From Tubiluchus corallicola (lineage: Eukaryota; Animalia; Priapulida), in the NCBI GenBank assembly GCA_030141605.1, contig JAQGDQ010000070.1:558001-622000 (forward strand): a stretch of DNA of 64,000 nucleotides, read 5' to 3'. The translations under genes were made by a program, and so were the position numbers. Of the stretch, positions 22,401 through 55,240 are shown piece by piece. The notes under the pieces are model-generated. The model saw nothing but the letters and a program-made list of their open reading frames with translations. It had not been told where the DNA came from and did not search any database. The number at the start of each line of letters is the position of its first letter. The first letter of the stretch is position 1.

Positions 22401-25400
22401 TTTGCACTATCAGCAAAATTAAAAATTGCAAAAACTGCAACTGTGCATAAAATGTTGCCCACCACACCAAAGATACACAAGCACTGACAAAAGTATCAGA
22501 GAGTTTCCGCTACAATCACAGAAACGCTTTTTCACGATTGTGAGAGCAGAAGTGACATCACATGCTGACAGTACATTTTTTTATATTCTGCCTTGATACT
22601 TTTTGCATACTTTTGAGTTATATGTACCTTAGTTTGTGTGTGTTTTGTCTCGTCTTATATCTAAAGAATTTAAATCATCAAAATTCTTCAAAAATTCGTC
22701 CGTAGAATCAGACACTGTAGCGAAATGCGCTGCGCACAATTCTGACTGTGACTGTAATGATGTCATTTCAGATTTCACACTGTAGCGACAACTCTCTATT
22801 ATTACTCAGTTATTAACAATATGTCAGGAGGAACAACTCTCCTCAAGAGCTAATCAAATTTTCATAGCTAATGCATAAAAACTGGCTAGTCAATCATGCT
22901 GTTAGCTCTACATTTTATGATTCAAGAAATGCAAAACAAAATGTATAGCAACAACCATTTCAAACATATTACCCATATAGTGTACGGATATGTTATAGTG
23001 CATAATCATAACCAAAACACATTTGTGCACTAAATAAATAATTATCAAAGAATGGATATTTTGTAGACTTCATCAACTTACGTTTTGTCACTACCACTTT
23101 GCCGTTCGAATTCTCTTTTTCCTCGTCCGTCGTAAGATCCTCGGCCACGACCACGACCACCGCGGCCTCGTCCTCGTCCCCTGAATGGTCTAGATGTTTC
23201 GTCATTTCGTTCCGTACCTGGTACACTGCAAAGAAAGACTAGGATAAATGTTGGGTCGTAATTTTCAGTGAAAACTGGAAAAACGGCGTCCGAGAATTGC
23301 AGTTTACCCAATCAGTATAATTTTTTTTTCATTGTCAATGTCTGACTCCATAGTCTAACATGTACAATAAAACATCATCTTGGGAAATCATTAACGATCA
23401 TTTACAAGCAAAATGTGCCTTGCAGTTTACACATTAAACTGAGGTCATTTACCTGTTTGAACCTCTGGTTTTTACTGTGTTTACTGATTGTATCATGTAT
23501 TAAAATGTGTTTTTATATGTACTTATTTTAGTACAAATAAACATTTATTATTTGATTACAGGTATATAAACTCAGCATAGCACATTCAACTACTGAGACT
23601 ATCACATATAACTTCCAAACTATATGCAATAATTTCCGGCAGGGTTTATTCCTAGCAGACAAGAATTGAAAAGAAAAGCCTAGCTAAAGTACCACACAGT
23701 GGTGTGATACCGGTTTCATTTTCAAATTTGTTAATCGGATAAGAAATTGATTCGATAATCTATCATAATCTTTCTTCAGGCGTAAAAAAATTGGTAAATT
23801 CCAAACGTCTAACAAAAAACCTAATCCTTTAAGTGCAACAGGTTTGTTATCTTAACCATTGTTGTTTTAATAACAATACTGGTAGAAAAAGTAAAAAGTA
23901 AAGAAGAAGTTTATAATGAATTTATTTTATTACTTAGGAGTTTACAAAACAACCCAACAAAACAGTCGTTGGTGATTGCATGCTTATACAAACTTATTAT
24001 TATTTACAAAAAACATGTCCTTGTGCTTATGAGAAATTTGTCTCTAAGCAGAGCTGCCAAGGTGATAAGTTAAGCAAAAGTAATGAGCTATTCCTCGTTT
24101 CACTGCAATGATAGCTATGTTTATTGTATTTTTGAGTTTTTTTCCGAAAAATAAGTACTGGTAATACAATGGATTTGCATCAAGAGCTGAAAAAATAATC
24201 GATGATCAGAAATAATGTCTAAATCGATTGTAATCGATTAAATCCATTAATCGGTCCCATTACTAAGCAAATGAAAAAAAACTCACCAGATTTGACTATT
24301 GCTCGATATCAATACAATATTGACATTTTACCTGAATTCTCCAGTGGGTGGAAAGGGTCGTTCCTTGTCGATATCCCGGCTAGTTTTATCATCTTCTCGG
24401 TTCCGTCGATTCCGCCTCTCCTCTGGCGCCAAGTTGTCTATCTGGCTTCCTCCGAATTTCACGTTCCGATCCTGTTTTTGACTCCGGTTCGGCTTCTGGC
24501 TTTCTTTTGGACTTTCTGAATAAAAAACGTTGATTATCATCTAACTGCTGGAAGTGCTTCTAAGCTCACTTTTGTGTCCCTATTCACATAAATTACTGAT
24601 TTTTTTTAAACGGATTTCACTAATAAAACATGTGTAATGGTGATACACGGGATGCCCTTTATACACACTTACATACGCCCTTTAACTTTAATTTTTAAGT
24701 AGTATGTGTAATTTTACATTTTAGTTTGCGTTTTCTATTATATCTCTTTTAAACTAAGTAGCTTCAGTAAATTTGTTCACATTTTTTCTCATTATGTCAT
24801 AACGACGGTTGAATAACAGAGCTAAGGTATCAACATACAAAACTTAAAGGAAAACCAGACGATTGTGTGAACTTTAGTTCAGAATAAAGAATGCTCTAAA
24901 ATATTGAGAACTACAATAACGTTTTTTAAATCAAAGCTTAGATTAAATAATAATTACCTCGGATACTCAAATTTTGTTAAACTTTCAAAGCTACACGCGG
25001 CTCAGTGAATCTACTATCAGTGAATCTACTAATTGATTGGCAAAAGCGCCTTTTTGTCACATGCGCGTGGCCGACAAATAGAAGGCGGTACCGTGATAAC
25101 CTTGATCATAAACTGCACTGTTAGTTTCCATCGTCATATGATGTAGTCCCCATTTTGGTGACAACACCCGTTTAAGCAGTAACACTTACGCAAACGTGCT
25201 TGCCGCACAGAGAAGGTGCCTACTATTGCACAAACTGTGGTTAGTTTCTGACATAAGCAATAGCTGCGTTCGGTTGCCATTAAATTAAGTTTCTAAGCTA
25301 ATTATTGAAATATAAGAAACAATTGCTAATTTTTATAGGCAAGAAAATGTAGATTTTGGACAGTAAATCAAAATAAGACTGAATCTAAACAATCGCATGG

Positions 25401-27737
25401 TTTTCCTTTAAAACACCAACATCCTTGTTGCTGCTCTGTTCACCATAAATGTACTTTTCCCATGGTTTTGTCATTTACAAACATTAAATTCTGCCATTTT
25501 AATAGGCACTACTGTACAAGCTTCAATTGCTGAAGAAACATTTTAACTCCATCCTGTACATAAACTAGGTGGCTTACATATCACGCACTGCACCTCAACA
25601 TGTGGCTTAAAGTTTACGGCTAATTATAGATTTATTGAGATGGTTGGCAGAACTGTTACACTCAGTGCTGAACTAAGCTAGAGAACACATTGATCAGGTC
25701 AAAAACCTCAGCAGCAGCAAGCAGGACGCTGTGGCTTCAACGCTTGTTTTCATTGTAAAAATCTGTGCTAGAACACACTTTACAACCCATGGACCTCACA
25801 ATACTCTAAGCAGTGATTTGTAAAATAAGACTGTTCAAAAGCTATTATCACTGCAACCAATTAAAAAAATGATAACCCCAACTTAAACAACAAAATGAAG
25901 CAATAAAGTGAAAAAAGGAATATGCCTGCATGATGTAGTTCCAAAACTGTATATGTTGTGATAATTAATGTATTCTGAGCACGACGTTTGAATTGGTCAG
26001 TCTCTAATACTCTCTATCCATACATATGCATGTGGCTTGTTCAAGGAAAATATGTGTACAACAACCACCCGAATTTGAACTGATGCCTCTAATAATAATA
26101 AAAACAGTCGCCACAGTCAAAGTAAACAACCCTAACTTTATGAAATGCTTTGCCAAAAAGTAATTTAGTGAAATTATTATAATCATTAGGGTCTATGTAA
26201 TATCCAGGTCCTTAAGAGCAGGATTAGATCCTGTGTGTGTCACAGAGCAAAACTACAGCTACATTACCACCGCATTACTACCAAAGATGGTAATTTAAAA
26301 CTTTCTACAAGTTATCAGGAAATATTTGTGCCCCAGGTATATGCAAAAAGATGATGGTACAGATCATTTGTTGAACTACAATAAGAACGGGAACGTGATA
26401 GAGGTGAATCCAGTGATAAAAAAATTAACGAGTGTAAGGAAACGACGAAAGCCAGAAACAATGAGTGAATGTATAATTCTGATGGTCTGTTCTGCTGCCT
26501 TGTAATCTTGTCCCGGAAGTTTGGCCAATTGAAAATTTGATAGAACCTTGGATTTGGCCATTAATCACAAAGTTTTACAATGTACAGACATTCACCTTTT
26601 AAATAATCAGCTACGACCCACTAATTGTTAAGAAATCAAAATGTGAGTATTTGCGTGTCTCAGGAAAAAAGTAGGACTTTAAATAGGAACAATACCATAA
26701 AAAACAGACATTAGGCAATAAAAATCCAATTTATCATAGGCCTACTCAATGAAAAACTGATATCTAATTATGTGTATCCAGTGCCACTAAGACTCTTTAC
26801 ACCTTGTATACAAATCAAAATCTATGTATGCAGCATTTACGAAAACATATAAAAGGGAATTTATAAATGTGTTTGGTCCTCCATCTGGAGTTGCAGTGCG
26901 GGCAACAGAGTCCTATAATTAGACTTCCCAAAACAGTTGTAAACTTTTTTTAAACAATGTCAGTATGTAACATTTAGGGCTGTTTTCCTATAAACTTGGA
27001 TGAGTGCTTCAAAAACTTTTTACAAATCACCATAATTCGAGGATACACTATTGTATCTCTATCGTGGCATAATAACTGCTGTTTTATAAAACGTTCAAGG
27101 GAAAAATCCACTGCATGAGTCTAAATACTAATTTCCGTAGGTTATATCTATGTACATTTACTGGCACATGAAAACCCAGTTGCCCTACACAATCTCTAAC
27201 TCCCGATATCAAGCGAATTATAGTAAATCTAAATGCATTATATGAAAACCATGTGTCGTTCTGTTGTGAAACAATGCCCAGAATTTTTACTAATTGCTTA
27301 TTTGGTACACTCTGGCATTAATTCATCTTCGTACAGTGATACATTTAGAGGCAGCACTGAGCAACGTCGAACACTTAATACTGCTGTGACAAAGCAAATA
27401 ATCACGTGTACAGCATGGAGCTTCACAAATCAAACGAACGAATCTACGGTGCACTACCTCCAGCTTTATTCGACGGTGCTTCTATAAGTTTCGCCTGTGA
27501 CGGTTTATTTTCAGTGGCATTGTCCAATATCGTATTTTTCGTCGGTTTTCCTTTGGCAAGTTTTCCTGATTTATCAGCCTCACGTGCTGCACTTTTATTG
27601 TGTTTTTGTCCTTTCTTTTCTTCAGCTTTTTTCTTAGCTAGTTCTTCTTGTGCACGCAATATATCGATCGGATCAGCGTCCTCGTCTAAAAACAAATCAT
27701 ATCGATTGTTGGTTTTTATCCCGTACACATTCTCCAT
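19497..27737 (-). CDS. SERBP1: SERBP1/HABP4 (PAI-1 mRNA-binding protein, vig-like), ~409 aa, 6 exons
   Basis: Exons 27737-27458, 24515-24332, 23225-23082, 21154(or 21157)-20993, 20805-20580, 19730-19497 join in frame. Motifs: MENVYGIKTNNRYDLFLDEDADP, GKREFERQSGSDKTGVK..DKRDGSGSHNWG, EMSLDEWK, FNIRKPGEG, RGG boxes, DFPTLG. Confidence 0.93.
21284..21944. mobile_element. Non-autonomous hAT transposon
   Basis: TIR TATGGATGCATCTAATCCAG / CTGGATCGGATACATCCCTA; subterminal GGATC repeats; 8-bp TSD ATACACAT / ATACACAG. Confidence 0.75.
22497..22798. mobile_element. MITE-like inverted-repeat element
   Basis: AGAGAGTTTCCGCTACA..GAAGTGACATCA on the left mirrors TGATGTCATTTC..TGTAGCGACAACTCTCT on the right. 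Confidence 0.55.
23697..24265. mobile_element. Possible degenerate hAT-like element
   Basis: Both ends are rich in AATCG/CGATT motifs; weak termini CAGTGGTG and CCCATTACTA. Confidence 0.35.
24848..25407. mobile_element. Non-autonomous Kolobok-type DNA transposon
   Basis: TTAA|AGGAAAACCAGACGATT ... AATCGCATGGTTTTCCT|TTAA: TTAA target duplication with purine (AGG) termini. Confidence 0.75.
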
Positions 27738-28189
27738 TGCACTGGATTCCTCTTCACGAGGATGGCAACGGATTTCTAGTACGAACCACACCACTACACA
27801 CTACAAAGCTCTAAAATGGCGTGTTTCTTCTCTGCTCAACATGCTCTGCATGCTGGGATATCAATGTGATATTTTCTGACGTCATATTGCCTTTTAGGGC
27901 ACATCCCTTTCTTATTATCTCCAAAAATCACTGCGTCGTTTTCTACGTTTTTGGACAACAAGCGAAGAATAATTTTTTACGCTAAATTTTTCTTAAAGTT
28001 CATTGCTGCATTGATTTCGTTATAAATATGGTATAGATTTAAAGGGCTTTTAAATCAAGTTGCTATCCCATGCCGCTTTGCAAAAGTCGCGACTGTTGCG
28101 CGCGAAAATTTTGCCTTTGCAAATATCTGTGCATGTGAAGTGGTGAGCGTTTGATCTCAGTTGTTTCTCAATTTATTACTTTAAAATTT
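27738..28189. promoter_or_regulatory. Bidirectional promoter region SERBP1/ZNF367
   Basis: Divergent ATGs 452 bp apart; YY1-like AAAATGGCG 27813-27821; CRE TGACGTCA 27877-27884; E2F-like GCGCGCGAAAA 28098-28108. Confidence 0.7.
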
Positions 28190-33023
<4,834 letters not shown>

Positions 33024-36361: not shown

Positions 36362-39300
36362 ATGGACGATGAAACTTCTAACATTGTCGCGGAGTCTGTT
36401 CTAACAAACCTTGGCGTAAACTCTACAGGTATAATTGAATGTTTTTTCTTGCATACATTTTAAAGACCAATAGAGACGATTCTTATATAAATGTAAAAAA
36501 ATTAAAATTTTGAATCTTCCCCTTTTAAATTTGTTTGGCACACTCTAACATTTATTGGTCGTTTTCTTTTATGTATTCCAAAAATAGAATTTATCACACG
36601 GTTTGCCCAAGAACCTAAACTTTCTTACTGAATGTATATGATGATACCACAGGGCTGCTCATAGAATTGTCCTTTTCTTTATTTCCACTACTGTGTTGTT
36701 GCGACATTTTTTATTTATTATGCCTATTATCATTAAGAATTATCTCCATTTTATCAACATTGATGTATCTAAATGTTTGTAGATTTCAGTACTTTAACAT
36801 TCTAAAGATCTAGATTTCTAAGATAGCAAGACATCAAGCAAGCATATGGGAAAATGGGAAAGCAAGAATAAAAATCCAAATCTAGAACATACCTAGGAAG
36901 AAGTGGGATCTCTAACAACTCTCATTAATATGTCTGAACGAATTGTGGAAAGCCCTGATAAATTCTGAAGTTATTGGGCCTTGGATTTTTTCACTGATTA
37001 CAGGTGCTGCAAATAACTAAATGTTGTTAACACACATTGCAGGTGACACAGGTGAGCTTGTAAATGTGCTGAATGATATTCTTGATAATAATGCTGGAGA
37101 TGATGATCTGGTAGCTGAGCTAAATAACGAGGAAAAGCCAGCGAAAGGTATTAATGTTTTATCCATATAATTATAATTGGGTGTTACTAGTAATTATGAC
37201 CTATAAAAGTGATTTTATATATTTTCTGACCTAGCTGTCAAAATAAAGAATCTAATTTATTATTTTTAGTCAGCAGGTTTCTCTCTTTCGATGTTTGTGC
37301 AAAAATTTGATATATATTGACATGCTAACTGTTAGATATAAGTTTTTCCATGTTAAGTATGCTGTTAAACTTACTAATTGACACATTCTTTTTCTAGTTG
37401 TTTAACTTGGCGTTTATCCAACCCTAACTTTCACCACTGAGCCACAAAATTTGCCTTCCTAAATTGCATTTAAAAAATTTATCCGAATCCTGATTCACAG
37501 TAAAAGTGTTGTAATGTGATGCAGCCTGTAAGTCCATCCCTGACGATTTTGACTGTTAAACAATGTGCTGTAGCATTTCAGTTTGTCTGTTTTTAGTCTA
37601 GTAGGCTTACTTTAATGCAAATTCAGGCTTCGTTGATGATACTTTCAAATACTTTAGTCGTCTATTTGAAACTCTTATTGCATAGAGAGCATTATAGTTA
37701 CTGCACGGAAAGCTTAAAGATCAATATTTCACAGACTTGACTAGCTGACATTGATGTCTGTTTATAAACATTGACACAGCAGCCATGGCAACAGAATCTC
37801 ATGTGACAGATTTGTGACAGTTAAGCTTTTGTTTATAGGTCTTTTATAAATTTATTGTGTTTAATCATACTGTTCCATCAGCAAGCTAGCTGTAATATTC
37901 TAATTGTATGATTTTGAAATCAGGGAAGATACCTAAAGCAAAAACCAAGAGCAGTCCCGCTAAAGCAAAGAAGGGAACATCACCTGCTGCAACAAAAACC
38001 GCATCTAGTAAGAAGCAAACAACTGAGCCGTCATCTGCTGTAGAGGGCGCTGACTCGTCCAAGAAGACAACTCCAACAAAAAAGAAGACAACTGTAATTG
38101 TTTATATTATTTAGCGAACTGAATATTAGAAATTTTGCTAGTTATAAAAGATTGCAGATATAAAACACTTTTATATAAAGGTCTTTTATATCTGCAAAAA
38201 ATACAAATCTATATATACAAAAAAATACTGTGTATTGTTTTGCCTGCTTTCTTGGTCACTTTTCTATTTAGCTTTAACTTTCAGTTTGATAAAAGTACAA
38301 AATTTTGTCTGCTTAAAATTTTGAGAAATCTATATATGGCCTTGTTTGAGTCCTGGAGAATATATATATATAGCTTGTTTATATGCATGCAAAAATTACA
38401 AACTTCTTTATTTAAATTTATAGACTGTGAAAGCTGAAGGTGTTAAAACGAAATCTGCAAGCACAGCTTCTCAAGAAATCAATATAACCATTCCTGCGGA
38501 AAATATTAAGCAAGAGCCAGGTGGCGAAAATAAACTCGCTGCATCAAAAAGTATGTGAACTGAACTTTTCATTCCCTTGATTTAAGGATGGCCAGTTTTG
38601 AAACTGTTGCAAAATAACTAATTACAATTAATAATTCAACTGGACTGTTTGTAACAGAAATATGAACAGTTTTTTAACCTTTACTGCTAAGTCAGGCATT
38701 TTTATTGTACTTGAATATTCCGGCAATCAAATTATAGCAAGCTTAGAAGGCTCCAGCTGTTTTACCTACTAGGTGTGGTGGTATGCATTTAATTACTCAC
38801 AGTGATTACTGTGATGATTTATGATATTGAAATTTTGATTTTTTAATTTAAATCAATAAATTCATCAATAAATCAGTGCATCAATAATTTCTTGATTATT
38901 GTTAATTTTTTTACTTTTCTAAAAGTATTGTTCGCTTGATTGTTGTGACATCATTTTATAAAAAGAACGGATAAAATGATATTAAATTAAAAACTATAAC
39001 TGACTTTCTAGAATCTTGTTGACAAAAATAAAATTAAAATCAACAGCTGTGTTTATTAAGATAATAAACGAATAAAATTTATTAAGCTTATAATTATATT
39101 AATTCTCTAACATAAAACATTAGCTCTTGGGTAGTATAAATGTTGCTTTTAACATTTCAGAATCTAGTGGGTCTTCATCACCAGCTCAAGCCAAGCCCCA
39201 AACGCCAAAGAAGAGTTCAAAGAAGTCTCAGTCTCGAGCGAAGTCTCCGAAAGGTTCCTCTGAGCAGTTGAGTGCCAGAGTCTTGCCTTTTAAACCTATA

Positions 39301-42300
39301 AAGCCAAAACCGACCACAGACATGCCTACAGCTGGTAAATTACACATCTGCTGTAAATCAATTTTTGAGAAAACAGTTAGTTAGCCTTGCAAATGTGGTA
39401 TTGATTTATAAGATTGATATTGATTTATTATATTGTTTGATTAAAGTTTGCGGTAAATTTTCGCTAGCAATTTTGAAAATTTATGATTAACTCGCTGTGT
39501 TGTTATTTGTTGTTAACATTTATTTTTTTCTAACTCCGTGCTAGTTTTTATAATGTTATTGATGGATTATAATGTTATTATTGTCAATAAAATACTACTA
39601 CTACTACTACTACTATCGGAATGGTATTCAGTAGCTGACACTGGAGTTTAGGAACTAATTGATACATACACTAACTGTTCCAACAGTCTCTATATTGTTG
39701 ACATTTACCTTAATTGTGGGGGTACGGTAAGCGAATGTAACTCATAAGTGCATGAAAGTAATACCGAATTGGAAAGTCTGAAAAATTTATGCCTCCCCTG
39801 GAAATCGAACCCAACACCTCCGGTTTTCCGGGTAGCTCTTCCACCTAAGGTAGATTGTCCATTGTTTGATGCTCACTTGCTCTTACAGAAGGCGATCAAA
39901 TTACTGTGAAGACTGAAGCAGCTGAAGGAGATGCAGAGGCAGCAAAGAAACAAGTCAAGGAACAAGCAGGTATTCTTCTCTTTTCTTATTTATAGTAGTA
40001 AGCAAACTGGATAGTTAGTAGTTATTGTCTGATGTATGACTGATAGTTTTACAAATCTTCAAAAAGATGACATTTTAATTTTTTTATTTTATTTTTAGTT
40101 ATTTTTATTTATTCTAGTTATAAACTTGATAAATATACCATAATGCTTATTTTCTTATGTAGTAGAGTACAGTGGTGTTAAAAGTTTCCACTTACAAATT
40201 GGTGTGAATTTTGACTAATGGGATAGCTGCAGTAAAATTCTTTTTTCCATCCCATATTTTATTGTTGTTTGTCTGAGTATTGTTGACCATTGTCATTTTG
40301 AATATTGTAAAACCATTTTGTTATTTTTACTTTTCAGTATTGAACTGTTGGTTATAAATTCCTTGTTTGTAATTATATTAGTGAAGTGAATAAATTTATA
40401 AATTGTTTGGCAACAGTATTAATCGTTTCTTTGAGTGTAGTTCCTTACAGTTTACAGTCTTGTGGATTGTTTCTGAACATTCCGCAGACCTGGATTAAAA
40501 TCACAATTGAGAATTTTTTAAAGCTTTTTTATCCTTTTAGTCCATTTAAGAGTAGTGATAAACAGTAGTTTAGTTTTCTTTTCTCACTTCCATTTTTAAT
40601 TTAATTTAACTTCCAAATAGCAAATTTAATTAATATTTGTGAACTTACAGTATTCATGTTTTGAATGTTGAGGTCGCTTCTGATATATACGAGTTTTACG
40701 TTTATTCAGCCTCGCGGAAAACAGGACAAGGTGATGCAACTTTGGACTACGATACGCGCAGTGAAGCAAGCACCTCTTCCAGTGATTCATCCAGCAGTGA
40801 ATCAGAAGGAGGTAATACACTATTTTTTAGCTTACACAAGTATTGGCTTTGCTATTATTTTGTCTTGTGCAGTAATTTCTAAAAAAATGTGTTTAAGTGT
40901 AGTAAATAAAATAAGATAAAATTTATTTATGAACAGTGATGTTGGCTGTATGGAAGACTTGTTGCAGGAATAACATCATCATTCATGATATTACCTTTTT
41001 GTATATTGTGGGATAAATAATCTTTTATTTATGTGCAAATACGATTTCCTTTATAGTTTTAGTTATCTCGTGATATCTCTGTTTAATTTGTGCAAACACA
41101 TTTATAGAAAAGTGCTTCACATCAGCTATAAAGATAACAGTTACAAGGTATTAGATAGTTCTTAATAAAAAATTTCAAAATTTGCATATTCGTATGGGGA
41201 AGCATTACTTAATACATATTAAATATGCTGCTTTTGGGCAATTTTGTTACATGTAACAATGTATTTCTTAAAAGGAAAAGCCCAGGCTTATGCAAAGTTG
41301 AGATTTAAATATTTGGAAAAAATATTAAAAACTTTCAGCCCAAAAAAGTTTAAAGCCGTTGAACAGTCCGTTAAATGAGAGATTATCAATACTATTTTTG
41401 ATTTTTCATGAAACTTGTTGCACACTGTGTAATAAAAAACAGTTACTGACGATAGTGCAGTAACCGCAGAACTCGGTTAGTCAACCCCAAAAAAGCTGCA
41501 GAATAATTATTTTAAGAGGCAAAACTCAATTCTGTAAGCTAAGTAACCTATTCTGCACCTACTTTATGCTTGCAGAATTTCATGCATGTCTGAAACACAA
41601 CAAACAATCTGTAATTTAATTATGTACAGTGCTTACAGTATTTTGATGTGTAATCCCTTATTGTATGATGTATGTAGGCTACGTCATCTAGCTGTCCCAT
41701 TGCATATTATTTACTCTTACGGTTTTCTTTTTACTTATTTTAAATATTTTGTATACTGTCTGGGATTTATTTAACAAGACACCCACTGCCTACCTAAAAT
41801 TTGAAAAAAATTGCTACCTAGCAGTATTATCACTTAAGTGGTCAGCATTTTATCCTTTGCCAGTAACAGCTATTGTTTTTTTTTACATCTACTTGATTGA
41901 CCTACCGGTGCATTCAATGTGGTACAGTTTATACAATTTGTATCTACATTTTTGCCTCATTTGTGCCACAGCAATCGATCAGTTTTTCCGTGCGTGCTTC
42001 TACAGAATCATTAATTCATTTTTTGAATACTCAAGGATCTCTATAAGCAATTCTGTCAGGTCAAATACATGAGATCATACCTGGGATGTTCTGCAGATTT
42101 AGATTTTAACATTACCTTGTCGTATTTTAACGGAATGTTCGTAGGCCCGACTAATGCGTGGACAACTATGTGATGTGTATGGTTAATGAGTTTAGGATAA
42201 TAGCTTTTAATAGTTTTAAAAAGGTATTTTCTTTCACAAAAAAGAATTTTTTTTAACTGAAGTCTCTGCTGATAATAATTTTTTGATGAGAGGTTTTTAT

Positions 42301-42816
42301 TGCTCAGTGGAATTTTTCAGCAGTTCTTTTAGAACAATATCCTAGTCACCTATTGATCGAATTAAGAATTTCCCAGTTAAAACAACCAAACAGTTATTGC
42401 AGTTTGGCTAATATTATTTTCTTGTCTTTGGAGAATATGAAGAAATAGATGGTAACAATGAGTCAAAGAGAAAGAGAGCCCACAGTCCGATTGTTTTTGA
42501 TGCTAAAAGCAGCAGCGACTCTGATGATTCTGACGATGAAGGTGCGGAAGATGGCAAATTGCCAGGTGAGTCAACTTGTGTATGAAATTACGTACATTTT
42601 TCAGGTACCAGTGATAATAATCTATACTTTGAGGCTTAGCCAACCTAAGAGCATGATAGATTACCAATGCTTTTGAATGTATGAAAGTACAGAATTAGAA
42701 ATTAGAAAAACACGTAAATGAACATCTCGCTGAGAATATGATTCAGGTGAATTTGGAATACAGCAGCATTTTTGAGGGTTTGCAATTATGACTTATAAGA
42801 AGTGATTGTCAAATAT

Positions 42817-42848
<32 letters not shown>

Positions 42849-45800
42849 TGTATGTATGTATGTATGTATGTGTATGTGTATGTATATATCAAATACATTT
42901 TCCAAACATTATGTCCTTTCTCTGCTCTTTTTTCTTTTAATGCCTGATAACAAAGTAATTTGTATCGTTTTGTTACATGTTAAATCACAGAGACAGAATA
43001 GAATGCATCCCTTTTGGAGAATGAAATCAATAAACAAAATGGTTTTTAATTAGTTTCTAGCATAATTATTATACTATAATATTATTATAATATAATATTA
43101 TTATACTATACTAGAATAATTATGTAACACCGCTTACAATAAAACAGTTGAAATTAATTTCTGTGCAGAACACTAAGATCATGAATAACACAGACAAAAA
43201 TAATAGAGCACATTACAAATAGTATTTAATATTACTATTGCTAAATTTAGATTTAGATTTATTCCTAGATTTCAGTGCTAGATATCACAATGCACAAGTA
43301 ATGAACACAGTGTAAGCAGCAGTTACAGAACGTATACACATGAAAATCAAAAGCACAAAATTCACACTGCAGAAATGTCTTATCATTTTTCACATCTGGA
43401 CCCATTTTCCCTGCAGGTGGTCTTATTGAAACTTGCTACAACATGCAAATCATTCTACAGCATGTGGATGTTTAACAGAAATTACTAGAACTGTCGGGAC
43501 AATCACTATGCAACAATGTTGTGTGGGCGTGTGACGTCACTCATTTAAATTTATCAGTGAAGCATGGGCTCGTAGCAATTTACTAACATAATTTTAGTAC
43601 AGTTATGTGCAATTATTTATGTCCCATCTACAACTTTTCTATTATAATTTGCTTCTCTTACTTCTAGAGAAGCGGATTAGGGTGGATCCTAACAGTGAAC
43701 GGGGAACCGGAATGAAATACCTGTTCCGTGACACTGCCTACTTCTTGATCAAAAGCAATAATTACGAAAATGTTTCCCTAGCAAAGGCTAAGGTACGTGT
43801 TCGACAGCTTTAGAAACATTTCTTTTAGTGTATTTTTTCAACATAGTTTTTCAACATTTAGCAAAACAATATTTATAATGACTTTTAACTTTCCGTGTAT
43901 TTAATCCGCATTCTCTTCATGATTGTAAGACTTTTATGATATCATTTTGCATAATTTTTTAATATCTAAATAGCAGATATTTATAATAACGGTAATAATA
44001 TTTAAATTACGGTTCACCAATTGAATTTTAATTTCTTGGGTTTCTTTTAGGCTGTTTGGTCAACACCTCCTCAAAACGAAGCCAAGTTGAACAAAGCATA
44101 CAAGGAATGTCGCAATGTGATTCTCATATTTTCTGTAAAAGAAAGTGGGAAGTTTCAAGGTTGTTCTTCAATTTTTTCTGTAGATTAACAGCAGAATATT
44201 ACAGCCAATTTCACTTTTTTTCTAATTCTCACAACAAGTTCACTGTTTTCATTTGTTCCTTGCTACTTATTGCAATCTTCTGATTATTTAAAATCTCTCT
44301 CTGTCTCTCCCCTCTCCCTCCCTCTCACTCTCTTTTCCTCTCTCCCTCCCTGCCCTATTTCGCTTTGTCCCTGACTCTCATGCGTGTCCATTTCTCTTTC
44401 AGGTTTTGCTCGGCTGTGCAGTGGATCTCGACATGACATTCCGCCTCCTCAGTGGGTCCTACCTCCAGGCATGAATGTTCGGCAGCTCGGCGGAGTGTTC
44501 AAACTCGACTGGGTCAACAGGTCTTTATCGTTCAAATACCAGTTTCTGCAGTACTAACATTGCAGTACTTAAATACCTTAAATGACACGCGTAACAACAA
44601 TTCTTCTTTTATGTCTTCGAATCAAGCTATTTTATATTTAACGTGTTCTATGTTTTAGGAGAGAGTTGCCGTTTTCAAAAACGTTGCATCTTCACAATCC
44701 ATGGAATGAATACAAGCCTGTTAAAATAGGGAGAGATGGGCAGGTAATATTAATTATTGTATTGTGTTGAAAGCTTTACTTAAAACCTTTAGAAGTCTGA
44801 ATTTATCTCTGATCAATTTTGAATTTAGTGTATAAATTGCCATGTCTTAAAGGTTTGTTATTGTGGATTTTCTTGGTTCTTGGTAGTTCAATCTAAATAT
44901 ATATCAGTAAGTAAACACACGAATATTACCACAGTTTAGCTAAAAAGGAAAATGCTTAATTTATAATAAGTAAAGTATGTATTATAAAAATATCTGCTTA
45001 AATGTTAGTGCTCGTCTTAACCTATAAAAAAGATTTCGAAAGAGTTCTCATTATCTAAATATAATCATAATGAGTGGCTGCATTTTCACTGTGCTTTTTA
45101 GGAATTAATTATTTGGTTAAAATTTATCAGATAATTAATGAATCATCGCTAAACATCAATAAAGCCTAACACACATGAGGAATTTGATTTCCATGTGTGC
45201 TAGACAATTAAAAGTCAGTAAGTCATGTCAGTGCAGTGCGGACAACACTGCATTTACTGTAATTTACTATCACAACAATATTAATACTGTTCTTGGCGTC
45301 ACATTCTTAATACAGTAGTTGTTTTAGAACCATCATTCTTCCTACATTTTTGTAGTGATAACTACAATGTTAGTAGAGTGCATTTATTGAAAGACCATTG
45401 TTATTACAATTAGTTATCAAATTGTTAGCATACGAACTTATTCTTATTGCAATGTCTTTTTCTTATTCTGGTTTATCAAATTTGCTTATTTTGGAAATTT
45501 TTACGCACACAATTAAATACATTTTCAGGAAATTGAACCGTTTTGTGGCGAGGCACTGTGTAGACTGTTTGCAGTTGATGAAACGATCGACATGGCTAAC
45601 ATTTCACGAAAGGCCAAGCACAGTCGCAAGGCAGGTCCGAATCCGATTCCGCCTCAACGCATGGCAGAGAGACGGCGATACCGGGATGTACCACCTAGGT
45701 TAGAACTTTTACCGCCAGGAGGCTAAATGGCCGTGAAAAGTGCTGTTACATCTGTGCATGAAACGTGCCTTTGGTGTGGCATTTGTGAAACGTATGAGCA

Positions 45801-48800
45801 CGTGATTGGTGCTCATTCATTTAAAGTGTCTGAAGTGCTAAAAGAAGGCACAGTTTGGCATCGTGCCAATTGTGCGAAGCCCTGTTTCTGTCAATGAAAT
45901 AATTTGTGTTTTTTTCTCTTGTGAAATATCAATTATTTTTCCAGAAAGGTGCTAGATATCTACATCATTATGAGTATTCAAAAAAGAACTCCTTTTCCTG
46001 GACATTCTTGACTTCAAATTCAGCAAAATGTGAAAAAAGGGACTTATTTTGGACCTTTCCGTTTGGACTACCCACAGTTATTATGATTCCATGGTTTTTA
46101 TTTGTGTTAAACATTTTGTGTGTGATGTGCAAGAGGGTGGGTGATTTAAAATATCGCAGAGGAACTACATACCTTGTGAATGATGCAGTTCTTGGTGGGA
46201 AACGAGCTACCTACGTGAGCTGATTGGTCATCATGCCCATGAAAGGATTGTTCTTGCTTAGTGCATTGCATTGGACTTTAGCTCCTTTGCTCATATACTT
46301 TAAAATCACCTGTGAGAAAACGTCCTTTAATTTGATATAAAATTGCGAGCTTTGCTGCCTCTTGCCAAAGCTTATTTTTGCTTAAATCCCAGTGAAGTTT
46401 AGAAGCTTTTCTAATGCTATGACCCTTTTCAAGTAAAAGACTATAAAAAATTTTGGTGGCGCTATTGCCCTTTAGTAGCTGTGTACATCTTATAACACAC
46501 ACAGAAGGCATAAGTCAATCACTCTCTGGACTGACAATCAAACAATAAAAAAATTAGAACTGATTTTACCTTTGACCAGTAAGGTGATTCTTGGCAGACG
46601 TACGTGAGTTTTGTTTTGTCGTAATCTAATAACAGGTAACAAGTGTTAATTCAGGGAGACTCTGCTGAAGTTTTTGGAGAGCAGAAGTTTTTCAACTGTG
46701 TGTATCGCTGGAACAAGACTGTCTGGGGGTTTATACTTTTTTCTAATATAGGATTTGTTGCTAGAATCTAATGGTACCATTTAATATACTATCTTCTCTA
46801 GCTAATTATACATATTAGGGGTACAGTTCTGATAATCACTGTGTTGTCTGCTAACACTATACAAATACTGCTCTAGAAACCAGATAAGCTTCTATGTAAT
46901 CGCGACTGCTATGCAGTTACTTAAATTTGATAAGATGGAATTTATTTTCTGCTTTTAAGAAATGTGGACTTTTATCTGTATAATGTCAGAATAATGTCCG
47001 CAATTATTGAATTGTCGAGTCTAAACTTGACTGGAAGGGAAGAAATGTAAATAACTCAAGGCTGAGACTGGATTTGAACCAGTGACCTTTGAATTACAAG
47101 TCTGATACCATGATGACACAGCCCCTTTTGATTATAGCAGGTCTTAATTCGAACTCAATAGCTCACTGACGAATACAGCATTTTCAGGTGTTAATTTACT
47201 TACGCCATTGAGTACTTTGATTTTAGCTGCAGAATGTCAAACTGTCCTAAAAAAATCAAGGGGCTGTGTGGCATAGTTGTTGTGACATTGTACCTGTATT
47301 CTAAATGCCGCTGGTTCAAATCCATGTGCTGTCCCGACTTCACATTTCATTTCTTCCAGCGATATTTGGCTTCAGCAGTTGCGGGTTCATTTTATCAATA
47401 ACTAAAATTGAGATTATGAATAATTTTTACAAGATTGTCAAGCTAGGGTGCTAACACACTATTAACTCTTCTTCCCTGAATTTTTTTGACAATTTCATTT
47501 CACAGCTGTCAGCTAAATGCAATTGGATGTGTGTTAGTCCTGTTTAGATCTTCTGGTATAAGCTTTCAAAAAACTATTTAAATCACTAGCAGTCAAAATG
47601 TCACTCCACTTATTTTGTATTAATTTAATAGATACATTAATGCTCAAGTTTAAATGTAACCCTTGAACACTTGGCTGTTTCAGGCGCGGCTTTTCCAGGG
47701 ATTTTGACCGATCTCGAAGAGGGCGTGGCAGCGGTGACTTTGGTCCAGTGCGTGAAGGTGTCTATAACACTGTGCTATAATAAAAAAAACTATAGCTTGC
47801 TACGTGCTGAAAACTTTTTTTGATTTTTTTAAATCTTTTTCGTGAATTTGTTTTGCCTTTTTTTCATCATTTTATTGTAATTTACTTCAATATTTAACAT
47901 TACTCGTTGCAGTTCTTTACTCAGAAGACTAATCGTATCAAGATTCCAGCAACTTAAAATTACTTGAAGCTAACAATTCTTATTTTGTACGAATTTGGAA
48001 CTCTTTCGTGTTGTGTTTTTTATTAATTTGATTGTTAACAATGCTATTGTCTTCACTGAACAAAAAACAACTTACAGTATATTAGTGAACGAAAAATTGT
48101 AGTTTGTCACTAGTGAGAAAAAAATGCAACACACCATCAGATTGTAAAGTTTCTTTGATCGTTTTTCCATGATTGTACAACATGTAATCTTATAAAATTA
48201 TTTTCAAAGGTCGAGGCCCACCGCCATTCCGGGACATCCGAAGAGACAGAGGGTATGATATATTAGTAGTTTACTGAACAGCTATTCTGTGTTGCATAAC
48301 TTTTCAGACTCAAGAATATCTAATAAGTTCACACTATAGATTTTAATTCTATGTGCAAATTGTATGTTTGGCGCTTTTGATATCATTCATACTTGTGCAT
48401 TGCATAGTAATGTGCATGCAAAAAGTTACCAATGTTATTTTGTCCATCACTCGGCTAGTTTTGCGCTTAAAAATTTACACAATATTGCAAACAAAACTCA
48501 GACATTAAACATAATTCTTAACAGTTTAAAATTTGTTTACTATGTTCAAAATGACAAGATTTCGTCGGTTTAAATTTCTATTTGTGTATGTTTGTCAAGT
48601 GCGCATATGTTAAGATAGAAAAAGAAGAGAGCATTTGACAGTGCACAGTCCCGCTGGCTTGCAAGTTTGAAAGTTAGCAAAAGGCAAGGTTTTGGTCAAT
48701 TTTTTTGTCCAATCACTAAGAATCTAAGCGACTGAAAAAAGGTTGAACTACAGAACGGGTTATAATGAGCAAATTGTGCATTGCGTAGCGCCTGTACGTG

Positions 48801-51800
48801 GGAATCCTTAACTTACAAACTTAGAATAGAATACAGTGAAACTTTTCCAACAGTTAGGGAACTATTCTCCTCCAGAAGGCGGCTAGCAAATTTACAATTA
48901 ATTGAAACCTTTGAAATAAAAACCATTAATAATTAAATTATATTCATGAAAACTACAGAGATCAACAACCTAGCAAAAAATCTAAAATTCTGACGATGCC
49001 ACTGTGTTGTTGTTCGTTATCGAAATTCCGGGAACTTGAGTTTGCAAAGGGGATTTTGGGTATAACTGAATTAATATGGTTAAAATTAAGATGTTTTTAA
49101 AAATATTCGTAGATATTAATTTTGATTTAGTCCACTGTATTTTAAGACTGTAGGCGTACTTGTGATTCAGTGTGTGACAGCCTGTGTAATGTTTTACCGT
49201 GGAACTAAAATTCTTTGAATCAGTATTCATGCAGTGAAACAGTGTGAAACTGAAACCCGTACAAAATTCAGTGCACTAACTGAAGATCAGAACAGCAAAC
49301 TAGGATAATTCGTTTTTATTTGATTTTCAGAGGTCCACCAATGCGATACGGGGTACGTAGAGACACAATGTTAAATGGGGTAAGTATCATACTACATTTC
49401 TTTTGCATTTTCTACGTTTGCACATTCTTGATACTTAATGTTGCTGAGTGTAACTGAAATTTTGCAGTAGTGAGAATGCAGTCGGTGTGCTCAATCGTTC
49501 TCATATGAATTGCCTGCATTTTTAAGAAGACCCTTAGAGACTTTTCCGTGTTTTTTTTTCTGGTTTACTGTTTGTCATCTTGCACTTCAGATTTCTGCCA
49601 AAAATTAGCCTACTAGTTAAGCAAAAACAGCAGCTACTGTTGGCTGCTCACTTTAGTGAGAGAAGTAATTTAATAACTATGGCGCATCTAATTAATTTGA
49701 TCTTAGATCTGTGCTGCAGCTGATGTTATAGCTGCTTTTTGTGAGGGTGTGTCTGTTTAAAATGTGGCCTAGTCAAGCATGGCTCTGCTTTTCTTATATT
49801 TTGAACACTTTACACATTTTTGCAGTGCGATATTACTTGTTTTTCAAATTTTTTATATTGAAAATCTCAAAAATTCATATTTTTATTAACATTGCTCATT
49901 ATTTATTAACATTTATACCTTTGTCTAAGCGTGCTGAAAATTTTTAAATGCTAGACCGACGTGGGTATAATGCAGACTCGTGAAACTGAAGAAAGTGATT
50001 TGTTCTGATTGGTTTGTCTGTGTTCAATCAATGAGTGAATCATCGATTATTGTGTTTAATTACTGTCAGTTTGATCAAATGACCATAAAACATGAGTGAA
50101 AACAGATGCAACTCAGCTTTCTGAAATTTTGTTTTTCACTGTTAATTTTGACTAATGACGACACTTTCAGTCGTGACCCTATAGGTGCTTGACATTTAAA
50201 AATAATCTATAAATATCACAAAATTCACAAAGGGTAGAAACCCTTTTTAAATTATAAAAATAAACTTGAAAATGACATCATGAATTGCACCTTTCTTCTA
50301 CTCAGCCTGAAGCTTAATAAAATTCACGTGTTTTCATATTTTGTTTAGCTAGCATTCTTGTTGTAGGCAGCATTTAGGGTGTCGTCTGTATATCTGCTTA
50401 CATGTGTTTTTCTTGCAGCCGCGTCGTGGAGGCTTTTCTGGGAGGGGCGCAGGGTACTCTAGTCGCAGCCCAGGACACCCTCCATCGGCGTCTCCATCGG
50501 TATGGGGTTTTTGGGGGGCATGATTTGGATGCTGAGGGGCTGCTTACAATGCACCCCTCTCGGTTGGCCTCCAAATTTTGCGGGCAGTTTCTTACTTTTT
50601 GCATGTTGTAGTTATTAATCTCATTTCTCATTTTAAAAAAACAAATTTATCACTGGTTTATCAGGTTAACATTCCTCTTGCTCTTGCTGTATAATCATAT
50701 TATGGAATAATATGTGCCTGGACTATTATGCTTCAGCAGCTGCATACAAGCTCATCCTTGCTTTACTGTCCTGTTTTTTCAGACTGAAAAATATGTTTGT
50801 ACTGACCCATAAAAACACCAAGTTAAAACAACTTCTCCATCTAAATTGAGCTATTTTCTAGTTTTAAATCATTCATACTGCCTTTTTATTTGTTTGACAA
50901 ACAAGAATTATGTTTTTTATTGCTGCTTGATTTTTTGTGCTTTACCAAGAAAATTTAATTTTTTTTAGCTTATGCTTATTTAGATTTTCTTATTAATTTT
51001 TAACAACGTAATTATATTATTTTGGTATTTTGTTTATTCTAGATGGTTTTGCAGCACATACTGGCACTGAAACTTTGAGTCAGTGACTGTAATTTTACAC
51101 TACTGTAAATTAAACTGTATGGAGTGCTCACAACTGTGGGACAGAATCGCAGTGGAGGGGCATAATTTTTCAGAATTTCTAATATTGTAAAGCTTTCTTA
51201 CATTTTAATTGACTTCGTATTATGCCTTGATACTATAAGTCCGCATTCATTGAGGTTTCAGATCATTGAAAGTTATAATTGAAATTTACTTTATAAACGA
51301 CTTAATTATTCGATATTGAGTCAATTAGCGGATGCGCAGGAGTGCAATTAGGGCAGGAATGTATGCTGCAAAGCTTTGTATGTGCTGCTGCAGCTTAATT
51401 AATGTGAATTTTTGTTTGAAGATTTATTCCTATCTCATTCATTATCATCGTTTTCATATTGCACCTGCATTTTCTCATTTATAATGGGGTTGCATCAACT
51501 TAGGCAGATTCTGTCCTGTGCCATTTCCTTCTTTATCCTCCTGCTCCACAGAAAGCAAAAGGTACTACATTTGCTGCCTGTTGCATGTTTCAGATAAAGT
51601 AACTTTGTAATTTTGATTAGGATGAAGCTCTTGCATTAAATATATTCCTAACAGAGATGTCTCTGAAAATAATGAGTTCTTTTGTAAGCATCAGAGTATT
51701 CACCATCTGGCTTTCCACGGTCTTGGGCTCACTGGTGTTGCAAAATCTCTCCGCATATTTTTTTCAGTTTGACTGTCAAATTTTGCTGTTTTTTCTCAAT

Positions 51801-53921
51801 TTAAGAAATTTGCTGTTTTTTAGAATAGATAGTCTAGACAAGTAGAAGTAAAATAAGTTTATCTTCAAACATCAACACATTAAATTACTTAAACGTAATT
51901 ATAAGTAGGTGTCCATGAACTGTTCGTTCTATTTAGTTTTTGTTTTTTAGCTCAGCTTTTCTCTAACTTAAGCAGAGCTGTTCATTGCATTAATAATATG
52001 TTTTTTAATATTCTTTCTGACATTCGAAAACTCTTTGTGGTCAAATACGGGGGGACCTTCTGTGCTGTAGTTCACTTTTATGTTTTCTGTTTTAAAAGTA
52101 TGCAATTGCAAGGTAACACAGTTGAGTACTATTTAATTTTCTTTTTTCAGTCCTATGCTGATTATATGAAGGAACTGAATTATAGAAACTCAACTTCAGG
52201 TCCCAGCCATCCTAATATGGTATGTACCACTATTTCTATAACTTCGCTACACAATTTTAAAGAGAATATTTTCCCCCGACCAGTTGTAATACTGTAGGTA
52301 CATGCGACATGAAGCATTTAGTATTTAGACTAAATTGCTCGAAATTTATGTACTCTAGCTGTGGTAAAGTTAATTAAAGCAAAATAATTTTACTTTGGTG
52401 GTTGCTTCATTTATCATTTAATATGAATCCTACAATAAATTAAACAGCACAACTTTTAGTTCACAGTGACATGCCTTTTCTTGAAGAACTTTTTAGTAAC
52501 TACAAATCTTTCCATTAAGAATGATATCTGTGTCAGTCATTTATCTATTTGAATACAGCAATGCCTTAAGTATAAAACTACTGTTGACTTCTTCAGACCT
52601 GCCAAGCGTTTGATGTAAAAATGAATGTGAAATATAGAAAACCATTGGGGTTCACCTCGCCTCTGGCATGCTTGTTATTTCTAGTCCAAGAGCAAATGGA
52701 AAATACCAAACTGCTTATTAATTTTTCTAGGGACCGTATGGATACATGGATCCTACGACACCATACGATCGACCATCAAACTTCGGCCGTTCCGGACCGT
52801 CAGGCTTCGAAATGTCGAGACGAGCTGCTTTAGCCGAAAAACGATCTGTAAGTTTGTGCATTTCGTTTAGTAAACGATTTTTGGTAATTAGCTGTCTAAT
52901 AAAAGCGATAGAGGTCAGGCAGTTGGTCTTTCAAAGAAGTACTGAAATTGTTAGTACAGCTTGCTAATCTAGCAATTAATACATTTGCTACATTCAATGA
53001 GAATGGTGTTGATATGATAAGGTGCTTCATGCAGACCGCTTTCTTTTACTGTCTTGTTGATGGAATAGTTAGCCGCAAGTGACTATTTCCTTTTTGTTTC
53101 AATGCCTGTCTGCATGGGATTTTGGATAAGGGCACAAGCGTGCTCTTCTATTTAACAGAGATGCAATGATTAGTTTGTCAAACTTTCTTGGAAGTAGCTC
53201 ACAAGCAACTACACACTGGTCCTGAACAGACTAAAAGTTTTATCTCTGTCAGCATCATCTTGTTTACAAATGATCGTTTTCTGAGTAGCGTTGTACACCA
53301 TCAAGTCTACTTGCACTTTAATTTGTTAATATACATAAAAGCTTGTGAAATTGCTTCTCTAAACAAAATAATGCTGAAAGTTCAGCATGGATAATTGTAT
53401 TAAATCATCTTTTATTAATATAATGTAGACGTTTTCATAAATAGGTCCAGAAACTTCATTCAGCAGTCGCTGACAATACGCAAGTAACAATGAAAATGGA
53501 GAAGGGAAACGGATGAATGTGTTTACATAAATGTATATAATTATAGAGCATCATTATTGGAATGCTAGAAAAGTTAATGCTAAAAAATCATGAAGTATTT
53601 AATTGTATGAATTTGCATAAAAACAAGTACTATACAAACCAGTTTTAATTATCTGTGTTTTGACTAGTTGTTAATTTGATGAGCGGGAGATTATCCCATA
53701 CATTCGTCTTTGGCCTGAAAAGTTGAAAGCGAAGACCATATATTAGTTCTGTGCAAGACATGTCAAAAATTGCAATTTTTCACTAACTTTGGCAAGCTAT
53801 TTTAACAATTCATTTTTTGCAGTATGAAAGATCAGTAGATGACTTTTTACGTCGCACGAAGCAGTCGCACAGTCTACGACGAAGCCCGGATCGTGATCGG
53901 CGTTATCGTGATCGACACTAA
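36362..53921 (+). CDS. YTHDC1: YTH domain-containing protein 1 (nuclear m6A reader), ~698 aa, 20 coding exons
   Basis: Exons 36362-36428, 37043-37147, 37924-38093, 38424-38550, 39161-39334, 39889-39969, 40710-40811, 42434-42565, 43668-43792, 44051-44159, 44403-44520, 44659-44743, 45529-45698, 47684-47757, 48210-48252, 49331-49379, 50419-50499, 52151-52219, 52731-52847, 53823-53921 in frame. Motifs: [29 protein letters not shown] domain ([72 protein letters not shown]), [23 protein letters not shown]. Confidence 0.95.
39790..39850 (-). mobile_element. tRNA-derived SINE head
   Basis: Reverse complement contains GGGTTCGATTTCCAGGGGAGG (B-box/T-arm). Confidence 0.45.
42818..42885. repeat. (TATG)n microsatellite
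   Basis: About 12 tandem TATG units, then TATGTG variants. Confidence 0.95.
46990..47396. mobile_element. Palindromic element made of two divergent tRNA-like arms
   Basis: Minus arm 47060-47125 and plus arm 47260-47330 both read GGGGCTGTGT...CTGGTTCAAATCCA, followed by CACATTTC..CTTCCAG..TTGCGG tails; 134-nt spacer. Confidence 0.7.
51398..51886. mobile_element. MITE-like element with ~26-bp imperfect inverted ends
   Basis: AATTAATGTG..TGTTTGAAGAT mirrors ATCTTCAAACA..CACATTAAATT. Confidence 0.4.
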
Positions 53922-55240
53922 AGCTTTCTTCATGACTTCATGGCTAATAATACTGCTTGTGTTTTGTTTTATGTGGTTACACATGATTGTGCTTTTTTAT
54001 TACACCTGTGCTGACATCTAGTATTTATTAGATAGATTTTCATCTAAACTCACTTTACGCTACTACTTGTGCAGCAAGAAACGGCTACATTTAGTGTCTA
54101 ATGAAAGCTATTCATGGAATTTACCGTGAAACTGTACACAGCATAGCTACTGACTACCAGAGAAGCGCTTAAAATCGCTAATGTCAGTTCCAGCCTGGTC
54201 ATATTTTCAATTTCTTTAATCAATTGTAATAATGGTAACAGGCATAGAAAAACCCCTTAATGTGAAATTGTGCAACATTTGCAGTCAATTGAATGACTTG
54301 GTGTTATATAACTAAAACACTAAATTTATCGGAAAAGCTAAAACCTGTTTTTTTTCCTTAATATGAAGAGCAAAGTTTCTTTTCTGTGTAACTTGAAGTG
54401 TCTTTCGCCAGTGTAAATGGCATTACTAATGGTATAGGCCTAAGCATTACAATAATATTAATTTTGCATAACCATTACAGTCAGAAATTGTATGTACTTT
54501 TGTTGTATATATGACTTGTATGTTTGAAAAATGATGTGTGCATTTAAGATATGAACAATTGTTGTTTTAGTATATTTCATTATAATGCACAGTATGGCAG
54601 AGTTTGCTTGTCTTTCTGTTTTTAATCTTCATGCCAGTGAACAATATTAAGTAGCTGTCATGTCATTTCTCTGTTGTTTATTGGACTAGAGCTTTAGTTA
54701 ATTCTGTTATGTTACACTGGTCATATGTTACGGTAATGTAGCAGACAATATTAATTGCCATTGTATTTGCAGCAAAGCAATTTTATTTGCCCTACTGAGA
54801 TACACAGTTTTGTAAAATTGGCCTGACTAATGTCATTGTTTTGTTACTCTGTAGTTGGGATAACAGCTATACATTGCAGATGGAGTGATAAGGATATGAA
54901 TGTTCAATTGCGCATGCATGTGTGCCTGTTCAGTGGCACAAACCCTGAATTATTACTACAGAGTATACTTCTTTTGAATGTTTTCCAATAACACTTATTA
55001 CATAATATGAGCTTGTGTACATTTTAAATTTTCTGTTTGTTGGTGGTAACCATTACATTGTACCATTTGTTAAAACAGCCAAAAGCTCACTGCAGCAAAC
55101 TCATGTGTTTGGAACATCTCCCTCCTTTTGTACTTCAAATGTTTTTGAAAGTTGTTTAAGGTCTTGTAAAAATCTTGCATTTTTTAAATGGATCGTTATT
55201 AAATGATAATTTAAAACGTAACCTAGGTTATTATTATAGA

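Follow-up and report, generated by a model that had tools for sequence, protein, structure and literature searches.

Introduction

The closest described system to the one reported here is the alternative 5' splice site of exon 11/intron 11 of mouse Ythdc1, the gene encoding the nuclear YTH reader of N6-methyladenosine (m6A). In the parts of Wei et al. 2021 (PMC8327914, with its supplement) and of the miCLIP2 paper (PMC8450095) on which all our comparisons with mouse rest, the unproductive forms arise from a distal donor and from intron retention, with no cassette exon among them. The major donor of intron 11 ends a 167-nt exon and a minor distal donor lies at +1358 (PMC8327914). Transcript ENSMUST00000156363 has exons of 109, 118, 85 and 1525 nt, the last composed of 167 nt and a 1358-nt extension; a stop codon is located 52 nt past the proximal donor and m6A peaks are found at +70 to +230 and at +906 (PMC8327914 supplement). 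Upon METTL3 degradation the minor junction dropped from 20.4% to 0.07% and YTHDC1 protein increased (PMC8327914), and Mettl3 knockout in mouse led to less intron 11 retention (PMC8450095). Poison-exon autoregulation of serine/arginine-rich (SR) proteins is cited as a parallel (PMC8327914). Here, we report on the corresponding intron of the priapulid Tubiluchus corallicola, located in a 64,000-nucleotide stretch of contig JAQGDQ010000070.1 (assembly GCA_030141605.1, positions 558,001 to 622,000, forward strand), hereafter called the window, whose own positions are used throughout. Intron 13 of its YTHDC1 gene (45699..47683, + strand; phase 2, 1985 nt, longest of 19) combines four features of the mouse module, namely intron position and phase, an early stop, an excess of GGACT on the sense strand and the keeping of the intron in spliced RNA of a relative, and on these grounds it is likely a member of the Ythdc1 intron 11 m6A poison module. 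The interpretation that we favor, with moderate confidence, is that intron 13 acts as an m6A-dependent poison intron, retention or distal-donor use of which would lower productive YTHDC1 mRNA as in mouse.

Results

An intron orthologous to mouse intron 11 by exon sizes and phase

Judged by its predicted protein, the gene at 36362..53921 (+) is YTHDC1, the nuclear YTH m6A reader, as called by the original prediction, a short reading of the DNA letters that preceded this analysis. The model comprises 20 coding exons and GT..AG introns throughout, and its single open frame of 698 aa has one stop, at the end; six of the introns were confirmed as splice joints in sequencing run X2, described below. 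The Pfam YTH domain was matched on exons 10 and 12, the domain is 60–69% identical to that of 41 YTHDC1 proteins over 152 residues, and two tryptophans and a leucine align with residues that we take to form the m6A-binding cage. Both the N-terminus and the YTH region are nearest to Priapulus caudatus, with 77% identity over 171 columns of the YTH region and a sister position (SH-aLRT, an approximate likelihood ratio test, 90) in a quick tree that left out four proteins and in which 9 of 68 inner branches were starred.

The four exons preceding intron 13 measure 109, 118, 85 and 170 nt, against 109, 118, 85 and 167 nt in mouse, and both introns are in phase 2. The same chain of exon sizes and the same phase argue that this is the same intron, and by these measures intron 13 is the orthologue of mouse Ythdc1 intron 11. 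Indels among vertebrate YTHDC1 isoforms are located at the residue aligned to the intron 13 junction. Exon sizes and indel positions together bear out the equivalence in position and phase put forward in the original prediction, and the m6A marking and METTL3-dependent unproductive splicing that it ascribed to the mouse intron are upheld by PMC8327914 and PMC8450095. Exon 13 (45529..45698, +; 170 nt) is the last YTH exon and the counterpart of the 167-nt mouse exon 11, and its product corresponds to the last 31 residues of the YTH constructs made from human YTHDC1. Exon 14 (47684..47757, +) starts the Arg-rich C-terminal region that is absent from the unproductive forms. The comparison with mouse was made through transcript exon sizes and supplement positions. 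Besides gene, intron position and phase, the two introns have in common an early stop (+25 in the window, +52 in mouse), great length (1985 and 2433 nt) and distal donors, candidates at +886 to +938 here versus the used donor at +1358 in mouse, and the mouse m6A peaks fall where the GGACH motifs of the window cluster (PMC8327914). The window differs by a strong internal acceptor and by its invertebrate host, and its distal donor is predicted from sequence.

Candidate splice sites and early stops

Splice sites were scored with a matrix built from the other 18 introns, and donors were ranked by leave-one-out score. The productive proximal donor, AG/GTTAGA (45696..45707, +), carries a DRACH motif (GAACT) at +5..+9. 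Retention or exon extension would meet an in-frame TAA at 45724..45726 (+), +25 in the intron, and give a 530-aa product with YTH intact, and inclusion of a cassette exon would meet a stop at 46009 and give 543 aa; both stops had been predicted. The predicted cryptic acceptor (45925..45944, +) is indeed the best of 103 AGs in the intron, scoring 9.5 bits versus 6.2 for the real acceptor, and remains a candidate outside X2 cover. Candidate distal donors occupy 46584..46641 (+), with GTs at 46584, 46600, 46604 and 46636. Three of these correspond to the originally proposed donors at ~46599-46603 and 46635, which were given as last exon bases, and 46584 had been overlooked; 46636 and 46584 are the best of 123 GTs (7.9 bits) and 46604 is outside the top 12.

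A sense-strand excess of GGACT recurs in orthologous introns

The stretch 45699-46970 contains on its sense strand GGACT at 46040, 46065, 46273, 46528 and 46966, GGACA at 46000 and GGACC at 46051, exactly where the original prediction placed them. Four GGACH form a core cluster (46000..46069, +). Relative to 5000 dinucleotide shuffles of the stretch, GGACT occurs 5 times versus 1.02 expected (p=0.0034) and GGACH 7 times versus 2.13 +/- 1.38 (p=0.0054), and its antisense strand contains 0 GGACT and 0 GGACH. The predicted count and excess therefore stand; the predicted expectation of about one is too low for the shuffle and near the estimate of 0.76 from other introns. All other 18 introns together (13,478 nt) hold 2 GGACT and 8 GGACH, and the stretch is the densest kilobase for GGACH on either strand of the window. 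Among the 1024 5-mers GGACT ranks 7th in this stretch alone, with TGGAC above it.

A scan of metagenome contigs yielded 78 loci in 57 clusters, 20 of which have a phase-2 AG/GT intron at this place. Fifteen clusters were analysed, with donors chosen by eye, tentative lineage labels and, in four with a missing intron end, use of the first 527-1500 nt; 37 clusters were left out as spliced, intron-poor, without the intron or ending too early. The 15 loci contain 48 sense and 1 antisense GGACT, versus 9.2 expected from shuffling and 7.9 from the rest of each contig. The excess is significant in 8 of the 15: annelid-like L068 and L070, bivalve-like L078, termite-like L075 and the unplaced arthropod-like L046, L050, L052 and L073. 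Five further rotifer-like clusters with the same donor and partial introns contain 2 sense and 0 antisense GGACT. When the window was pooled with the 15 loci, GGACT came first of 1024 5-mers (53 vs 10.8) and GAACT sixth; CAGTG was also enriched, and GGACG, a non-DRACH word, was not (8 sense, 4 antisense).

Other properties recur as well. An early in-frame stop is found at +37 to +235 in 14 of the 15 other loci and at +643 in L073. Donors are of three types, AG/GTTAG (window, L068, L070, L078), AG/GTAYA-like and AG/GTCAG, and DRACH occurs in the first 16 nt of 11/16 orthologous introns, at +5 also in L068 and L070, versus 2/18 other introns of the window, related loci not being independent. GTAAGT-type internal donors are at similar places within the groups L068/L070 and L046/L050/L052, and in the nine other loci with both lengths read this intron exceeds the preceding one in length by a factor of 4-14. 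Between phyla no alignable intron sequence was found, donor-proximal blocks being shared within groups only; between the window and L068 the donor region is the sole alignable part.

The bdelloid-like loci L047, L057, L061 and L069, together with L041, L044, L055, L058, L063 and L072, have an AG/GTCAG donor followed by an alignable read-through block of ~90 nt that reaches the stop, and no GGACT cluster; L064, another bdelloid-like copy, is without the intron. Hemimetabolous insects apparently possess two Ythdc1 paralogues (L004, L005 and L007-L012 versus L075; P0163, P0166, P0203, P0205, P0211-P0217, P0223). One, in the termite, cricket and cockroach group, has the poison intron. The other is intron-poor and clusters in the quick tree with proteins of moth, beetle and lacewing (SH-aLRT 86); for example, the 16.6-kb genomic contig L007 has an unbroken frame from YTH to stop. 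This pair of paralogues, seen in non-fly sequences, could explain why fly work has not met the module.

Intron 13 sequence in a spliced data set from a relative

Run X2 is one small run with unstranded contigs, and its RNA status is a guess. It represents a relative and not the genotype of the window: despite the species label it differs at 56/688 nt (8.1%) in six exon pieces, indicating a diverged lineage or a loose label. Among the runs listed there was no RNA run with the window's own genotype. Its GT..AG joints match introns 1, 2, 8, 10, 18 and 19. Intron 13 sequence is present in this run, whose other introns are spliced out. Three pieces, among the 8 of 15 shown, are ~92% identical to the window (52/628 nt substituted, 8.3%). 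They lie at 45998..46222 (+; 14 substitutions and 3 single-base gaps in 226 nt, depth 21.7), 46383..46604 (+; 23 substitutions and 12 gap letters in 215 nt, depth 65.7), which includes the GGACT at 46528, and 46648..46834 (+; 15 substitutions and 3 gap letters in 187 nt, depth 37.2), past the distal donors. Another contig is unspliced over the intron 13/exon 14 border (47578..47731, +; depth 41.2, 13 substitutions, 17 gap letters, adapter at its end). Intron 13 contigs have depths of 22-66 versus 67-90 for exon contigs, contig depth being a poor measure of abundance. Exons, 3' untranslated region (UTR) and intron 13 account for the X2 bin depths over 19.5 kb at 85% identity, and at 80% introns 11, 12 and 14 were without cover over 44300-48400. 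Three further short pieces in intron 13 have loose ends and are repeat-like, and the parts without non-repeat cover (45699-45997, 46223-46382, most of 46835-47577 and exons 12-13) are uninformative. Run X1, which is near-identical to the window, has no splice joints and is DNA-like, says nothing on splicing.

None of the six assessable RRACT sites is changed in X2, versus 2.4 expected (p=0.04). The sites at 46040, 46051 and 46065 are without a listed difference, and changes at 46523, 46524, 46526 and 46535 flank an intact GGACT at 46528. One contig passes through 46584 and 46600 and stops exactly at 46604, where the GTGAGT donor begins with the letter that also opens exon 14. Such an end is where the assembly graph would be expected to branch for a 46603>47684 splice; with short contigs and adapter breaks it is a hint only. 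A 3' UTR block (54601-54708) shows the highest X2 depth, 186, with 12 differences in 108 nt, and holds the sole UTR GGACT (54683); an AATAAA is present at 55241.

Read-through forms in sequence databases

The cladoceran sequence L002 is poly(A)-ended and without upstream YTH introns, and keeps the whole 580-nt intron, which is removed in the 99.9% identical L003. The same intron is kept in poly(A)-type RNA as in mouse (PMC8450095), as full retention in L002 and as an unspliced acceptor in X2. A C-terminal motif was missing from 25 of the 148 YTHDC1 proteins that had the YTH domain whole; 11 of these depart from full-length siblings exactly at the junction, 7 end or diverge near it and 7 are whole or diverge later, and two additional read-through forms had passed the C-terminal-motif filter. 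The database truncations start with the residues expected from proximal-donor read-through. Many database proteins are gene models with no RNA proof. Better evidence probably comes from single open reading frames (ORFs) on short Logan or JGI contigs, in which an unbroken YTH frame would imply upstream splicing. Full-length read-through ORFs were found on at least 21 oyster Logan contigs versus ~40 of the normal form (15 of 52 cluster members listed; five judged by length alone, and one entry includes NCBI), on 10 contigs versus 59 in Daphnia magna, on 3 contigs and a RefSeq model in tick and on two contigs in gastropods, and in cricket as isoform X1. Because the search admitted only forms with an unbroken YTH domain, retained upstream introns were outside its reach as a control. 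GGACT bias and intron inclusion thus recur in annelid-, mollusc- and arthropod-like loci, in keeping with the predicted sharing with invertebrates. With parts of the intron in spliced sequences of the relative, oysters, ticks and water fleas, a self-limiting loop is likely common to bilaterian animals. Insertions of 10-16 residues or divergent ends at the same junction in catfish (P0028), loach (P0035) and echinoderms (P0002, P0005, P0006) form a separate observation, suggesting more alternative splicing at this junction in deuterostomes.

Rejected elements and neighbouring genes

Several other elements within intron 13 were considered and rejected. A 106-aa ORF (45903-46223) is not a coding exon, as X2 gaps break its frame and it has no Pfam match. 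A role as host of small nucleolar RNA or microRNA was dismissed, the Rfam scan finding only a tRNA-like match on the minus strand at 47059-47123; a tRNA gene there was likewise rejected (30.6 bits in Rfam, not called by ARAGORN), as was a stable RNA fold at 45945-46240 (z=0.64). The AATAAA at 46544 was set aside as background, 14/19 introns carrying this word. A repeat was rejected too, as the window contains no repeat copy other than a 30-nt, 87% match between 20286-20315 and 46668-46696 (E=0.009), probably due to chance. The tRNA-like pieces in the 3' half of the intron, at 47059-47123 (-) and ~47270-47340 (+; by eye only), are marked as dispersed repeats by loose-ended X1 and X2 contigs and are likely heads of tRNA-derived short interspersed elements. 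Elsewhere in the window we noted a SERBP1/HABP4-family RNA-binding gene at ~19400-27800 (-), a C2H2 zinc-finger gene at 28139-33023 (+; open stretch of 569 codons) and an SLC4-like anion-exchanger fragment at ~7950-8330 (+), below the Pfam cut-off. The second-densest GGACH kilobase (20007-21006, -; 6 sites) is on the sense strand of the SERBP1-like gene and partly coding.

Discussion

In the mechanism that we propose, the writer would methylate the sense-strand GGACU motifs of intron 13 in this animal, and methylation would disfavor the middling proximal donor. U1 pairs with a donor stretch that includes +7, and the DRACH at +5..+9 places a candidate m6A at +7, where it may influence this pairing. 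Part of the RNA would then keep the intron or splice from a distal donor near 46604-46636 and meet the stop at 45724, and the marked RNA could be detained or removed by nonsense-mediated decay, the stop lying 877 nt before a putative 46603 junction. Low m6A would raise reader output and high m6A would lower it, and YTHDC1 binding to its own marked RNA would close the loop. As when SR proteins and other splicing factors control their own levels through poison exons, a splicing regulator would carry a conserved non-coding block giving a premature stop. In contrast to those systems, the signal here is likely an RNA modification, and across phyla it is motif content and donor type that are kept, not alignable sequence.

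A number of observations weigh against this interpretation. The proximal donor ranks 13th of 19 in the gene and is middling rather than weakest, which made us reject the description of it as unusually weak. Generic DRACH is at background in 45699-46970 (26 vs 27.2, p=0.69), so that the DRACH-density check proposed with the original prediction went against it as worded, and is flat in the 15 other loci (255 vs 241); an enrichment of RRACH was rejected as well. A blind scan of the 64 kb would find such a cluster by chance with P=0.06 for GGACT and 0.24 for GGACH, and the cluster of the window by itself is therefore suggestive only. GGACT is not significant in 7/15 loci (rotifer-like L047, L057, L061 and L069, cladoceran L002 and L071, unplaced L039), genomic loci L030, L037, L040, L043, L054 and L064 are without the intron, and L056 has a short plain one. 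L002, the sole full retained-intron sequence, holds 1 GGACT, so retention is possible without a cluster, a point of difference from mouse retention (PMC8450095). In X2, conservation is not significant for GGACH alone (4/4 kept, p=0.15) or for all DRACH (3/12 hit, p=0.17), AGACT at 46716 is altered, and identity is inflated by the fact that only pieces above 80% are alignable. No joint within intron 13 is among the listed X2 joints, cover being patchy and exons 12-13 without any. Finally, the mouse intron 11 data, in the parts of the two papers drawn on here, demonstrate dependence on the writer and not on the reader (PMC8327914, PMC8450095).

The alternative that survives best, although we regard it as unlikely, reverses the order of events: retention would come first, an intron that splices slowly on other grounds would become methylated along its long unspliced stretch, and YTHDC1 would set the fate of the RNA, detention or decay, and not splice choice. 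Methylation is favored far from exon junctions under the junction-exclusion model, and most GGACH lie 300-1270 nt from the donor. The cladoceran intron retained with a single GGACT is in line with this order, and the abundant read-through forms in assemblies fit a detained pool. On the other hand, DRACH hugs the donor far more often in orthologous than in control introns, and the near-complete loss of the mouse minor junction upon acute METTL3 loss is contrary to the outcome expected if m6A drove decay (PMC8327914).

Conserved unproductive splicing without m6A, in which another RNA-binding protein reads UGGAC/GGACU-like words much as in SR-protein poison exons, appears improbable. It would accommodate the rank of TGGAC above GGACT in the window alone, the CAGTG enrichment in the pool, the flat generic DRACH and the conservation of the first ~90 nt in rotifer-like loci without GGACT clusters. 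It does not account for a top pooled 5-mer that is the best METTL3 motif, with GAACT enriched and GGACG not, and the mouse orthologue is m6A-dependent (PMC8327914, PMC8450095).

We give slightly less credence to the form put forward originally, a cassette exon from 45945 to a donor at 46603-46635, or a last exon ending at AATAAA 46544, possibly encoding a short YTH-only protein. The acceptor ending at 45944 outscores all others in the intron, X2 cover begins inside the cassette at 45998 with one contig stopping at 46604, and internal donor- or acceptor-like sites exist also in L068 and L070. No junction into 45945 was seen, however, and X2 extends beyond the cassette, with 46648-46834 and the unspliced acceptor, and crosses 46544; AATAAA, common in introns of this gene, is present in only 2/8 GGACT-rich loci; and database truncations begin as proximal-donor read-through. 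Mouse uses a distal donor or retention (PMC8327914, PMC8450095), and the unproductive form of intron 13 is likely of the same kind rather than a cassette or poly(A) site. A chance cluster combined with carried-over pre-mRNA or DNA, a repeat or an overlapping but unrelated RNA is very improbable: the window-wide P values and the unstranded X2 with its guessed RNA status speak for it, but the 48:1 strand bias in other loci and the pooled 5-mer ranking largely refute it, the other introns are spliced out in X2, and the repeat, Rfam and fold results given above offer no other source.

As for the m6A-dependent poison intron, annelid-, mollusc- and arthropod-like loci and mouse have its position, type of donor, early stop and motif bias in common, which suggests that it arose in the ancestor of bilaterians and was lost or eroded in certain lineages. 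We see an even chance for a specific version of this scenario, in which that ancestor possessed a homeostat made of a non-consensus donor with a methylatable A at or next to the U1 stretch, an early stop, a long GGACU-loaded intron and a distal donor. Priapulids, annelids, molluscs, chelicerates, several crustaceans, hemimetabolous insects and vertebrates would still have it, and fly work would have overlooked it since the Ythdc1 of fly type goes back to an intron-poor paralogue. Our literature search, covering mostly titles and starts of abstracts with subscription papers poorly represented, returned no study of this intron outside mammals, and in the literature found the feedback has so far been described in mouse cells only.

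If present across protostomes, the feedback would be over half a billion years old, and selection would have kept the single best m6A motif and not DRACH in general. The introns of oyster, Daphnia, tick and cricket (582-1985 nt) would then provide natural minigenes with which to address the disputed issue of whether m6A in an intron close to a 5' splice site alters splice choice directly, and lineages with the cluster, without the cluster and without the intron would serve as built-in controls.

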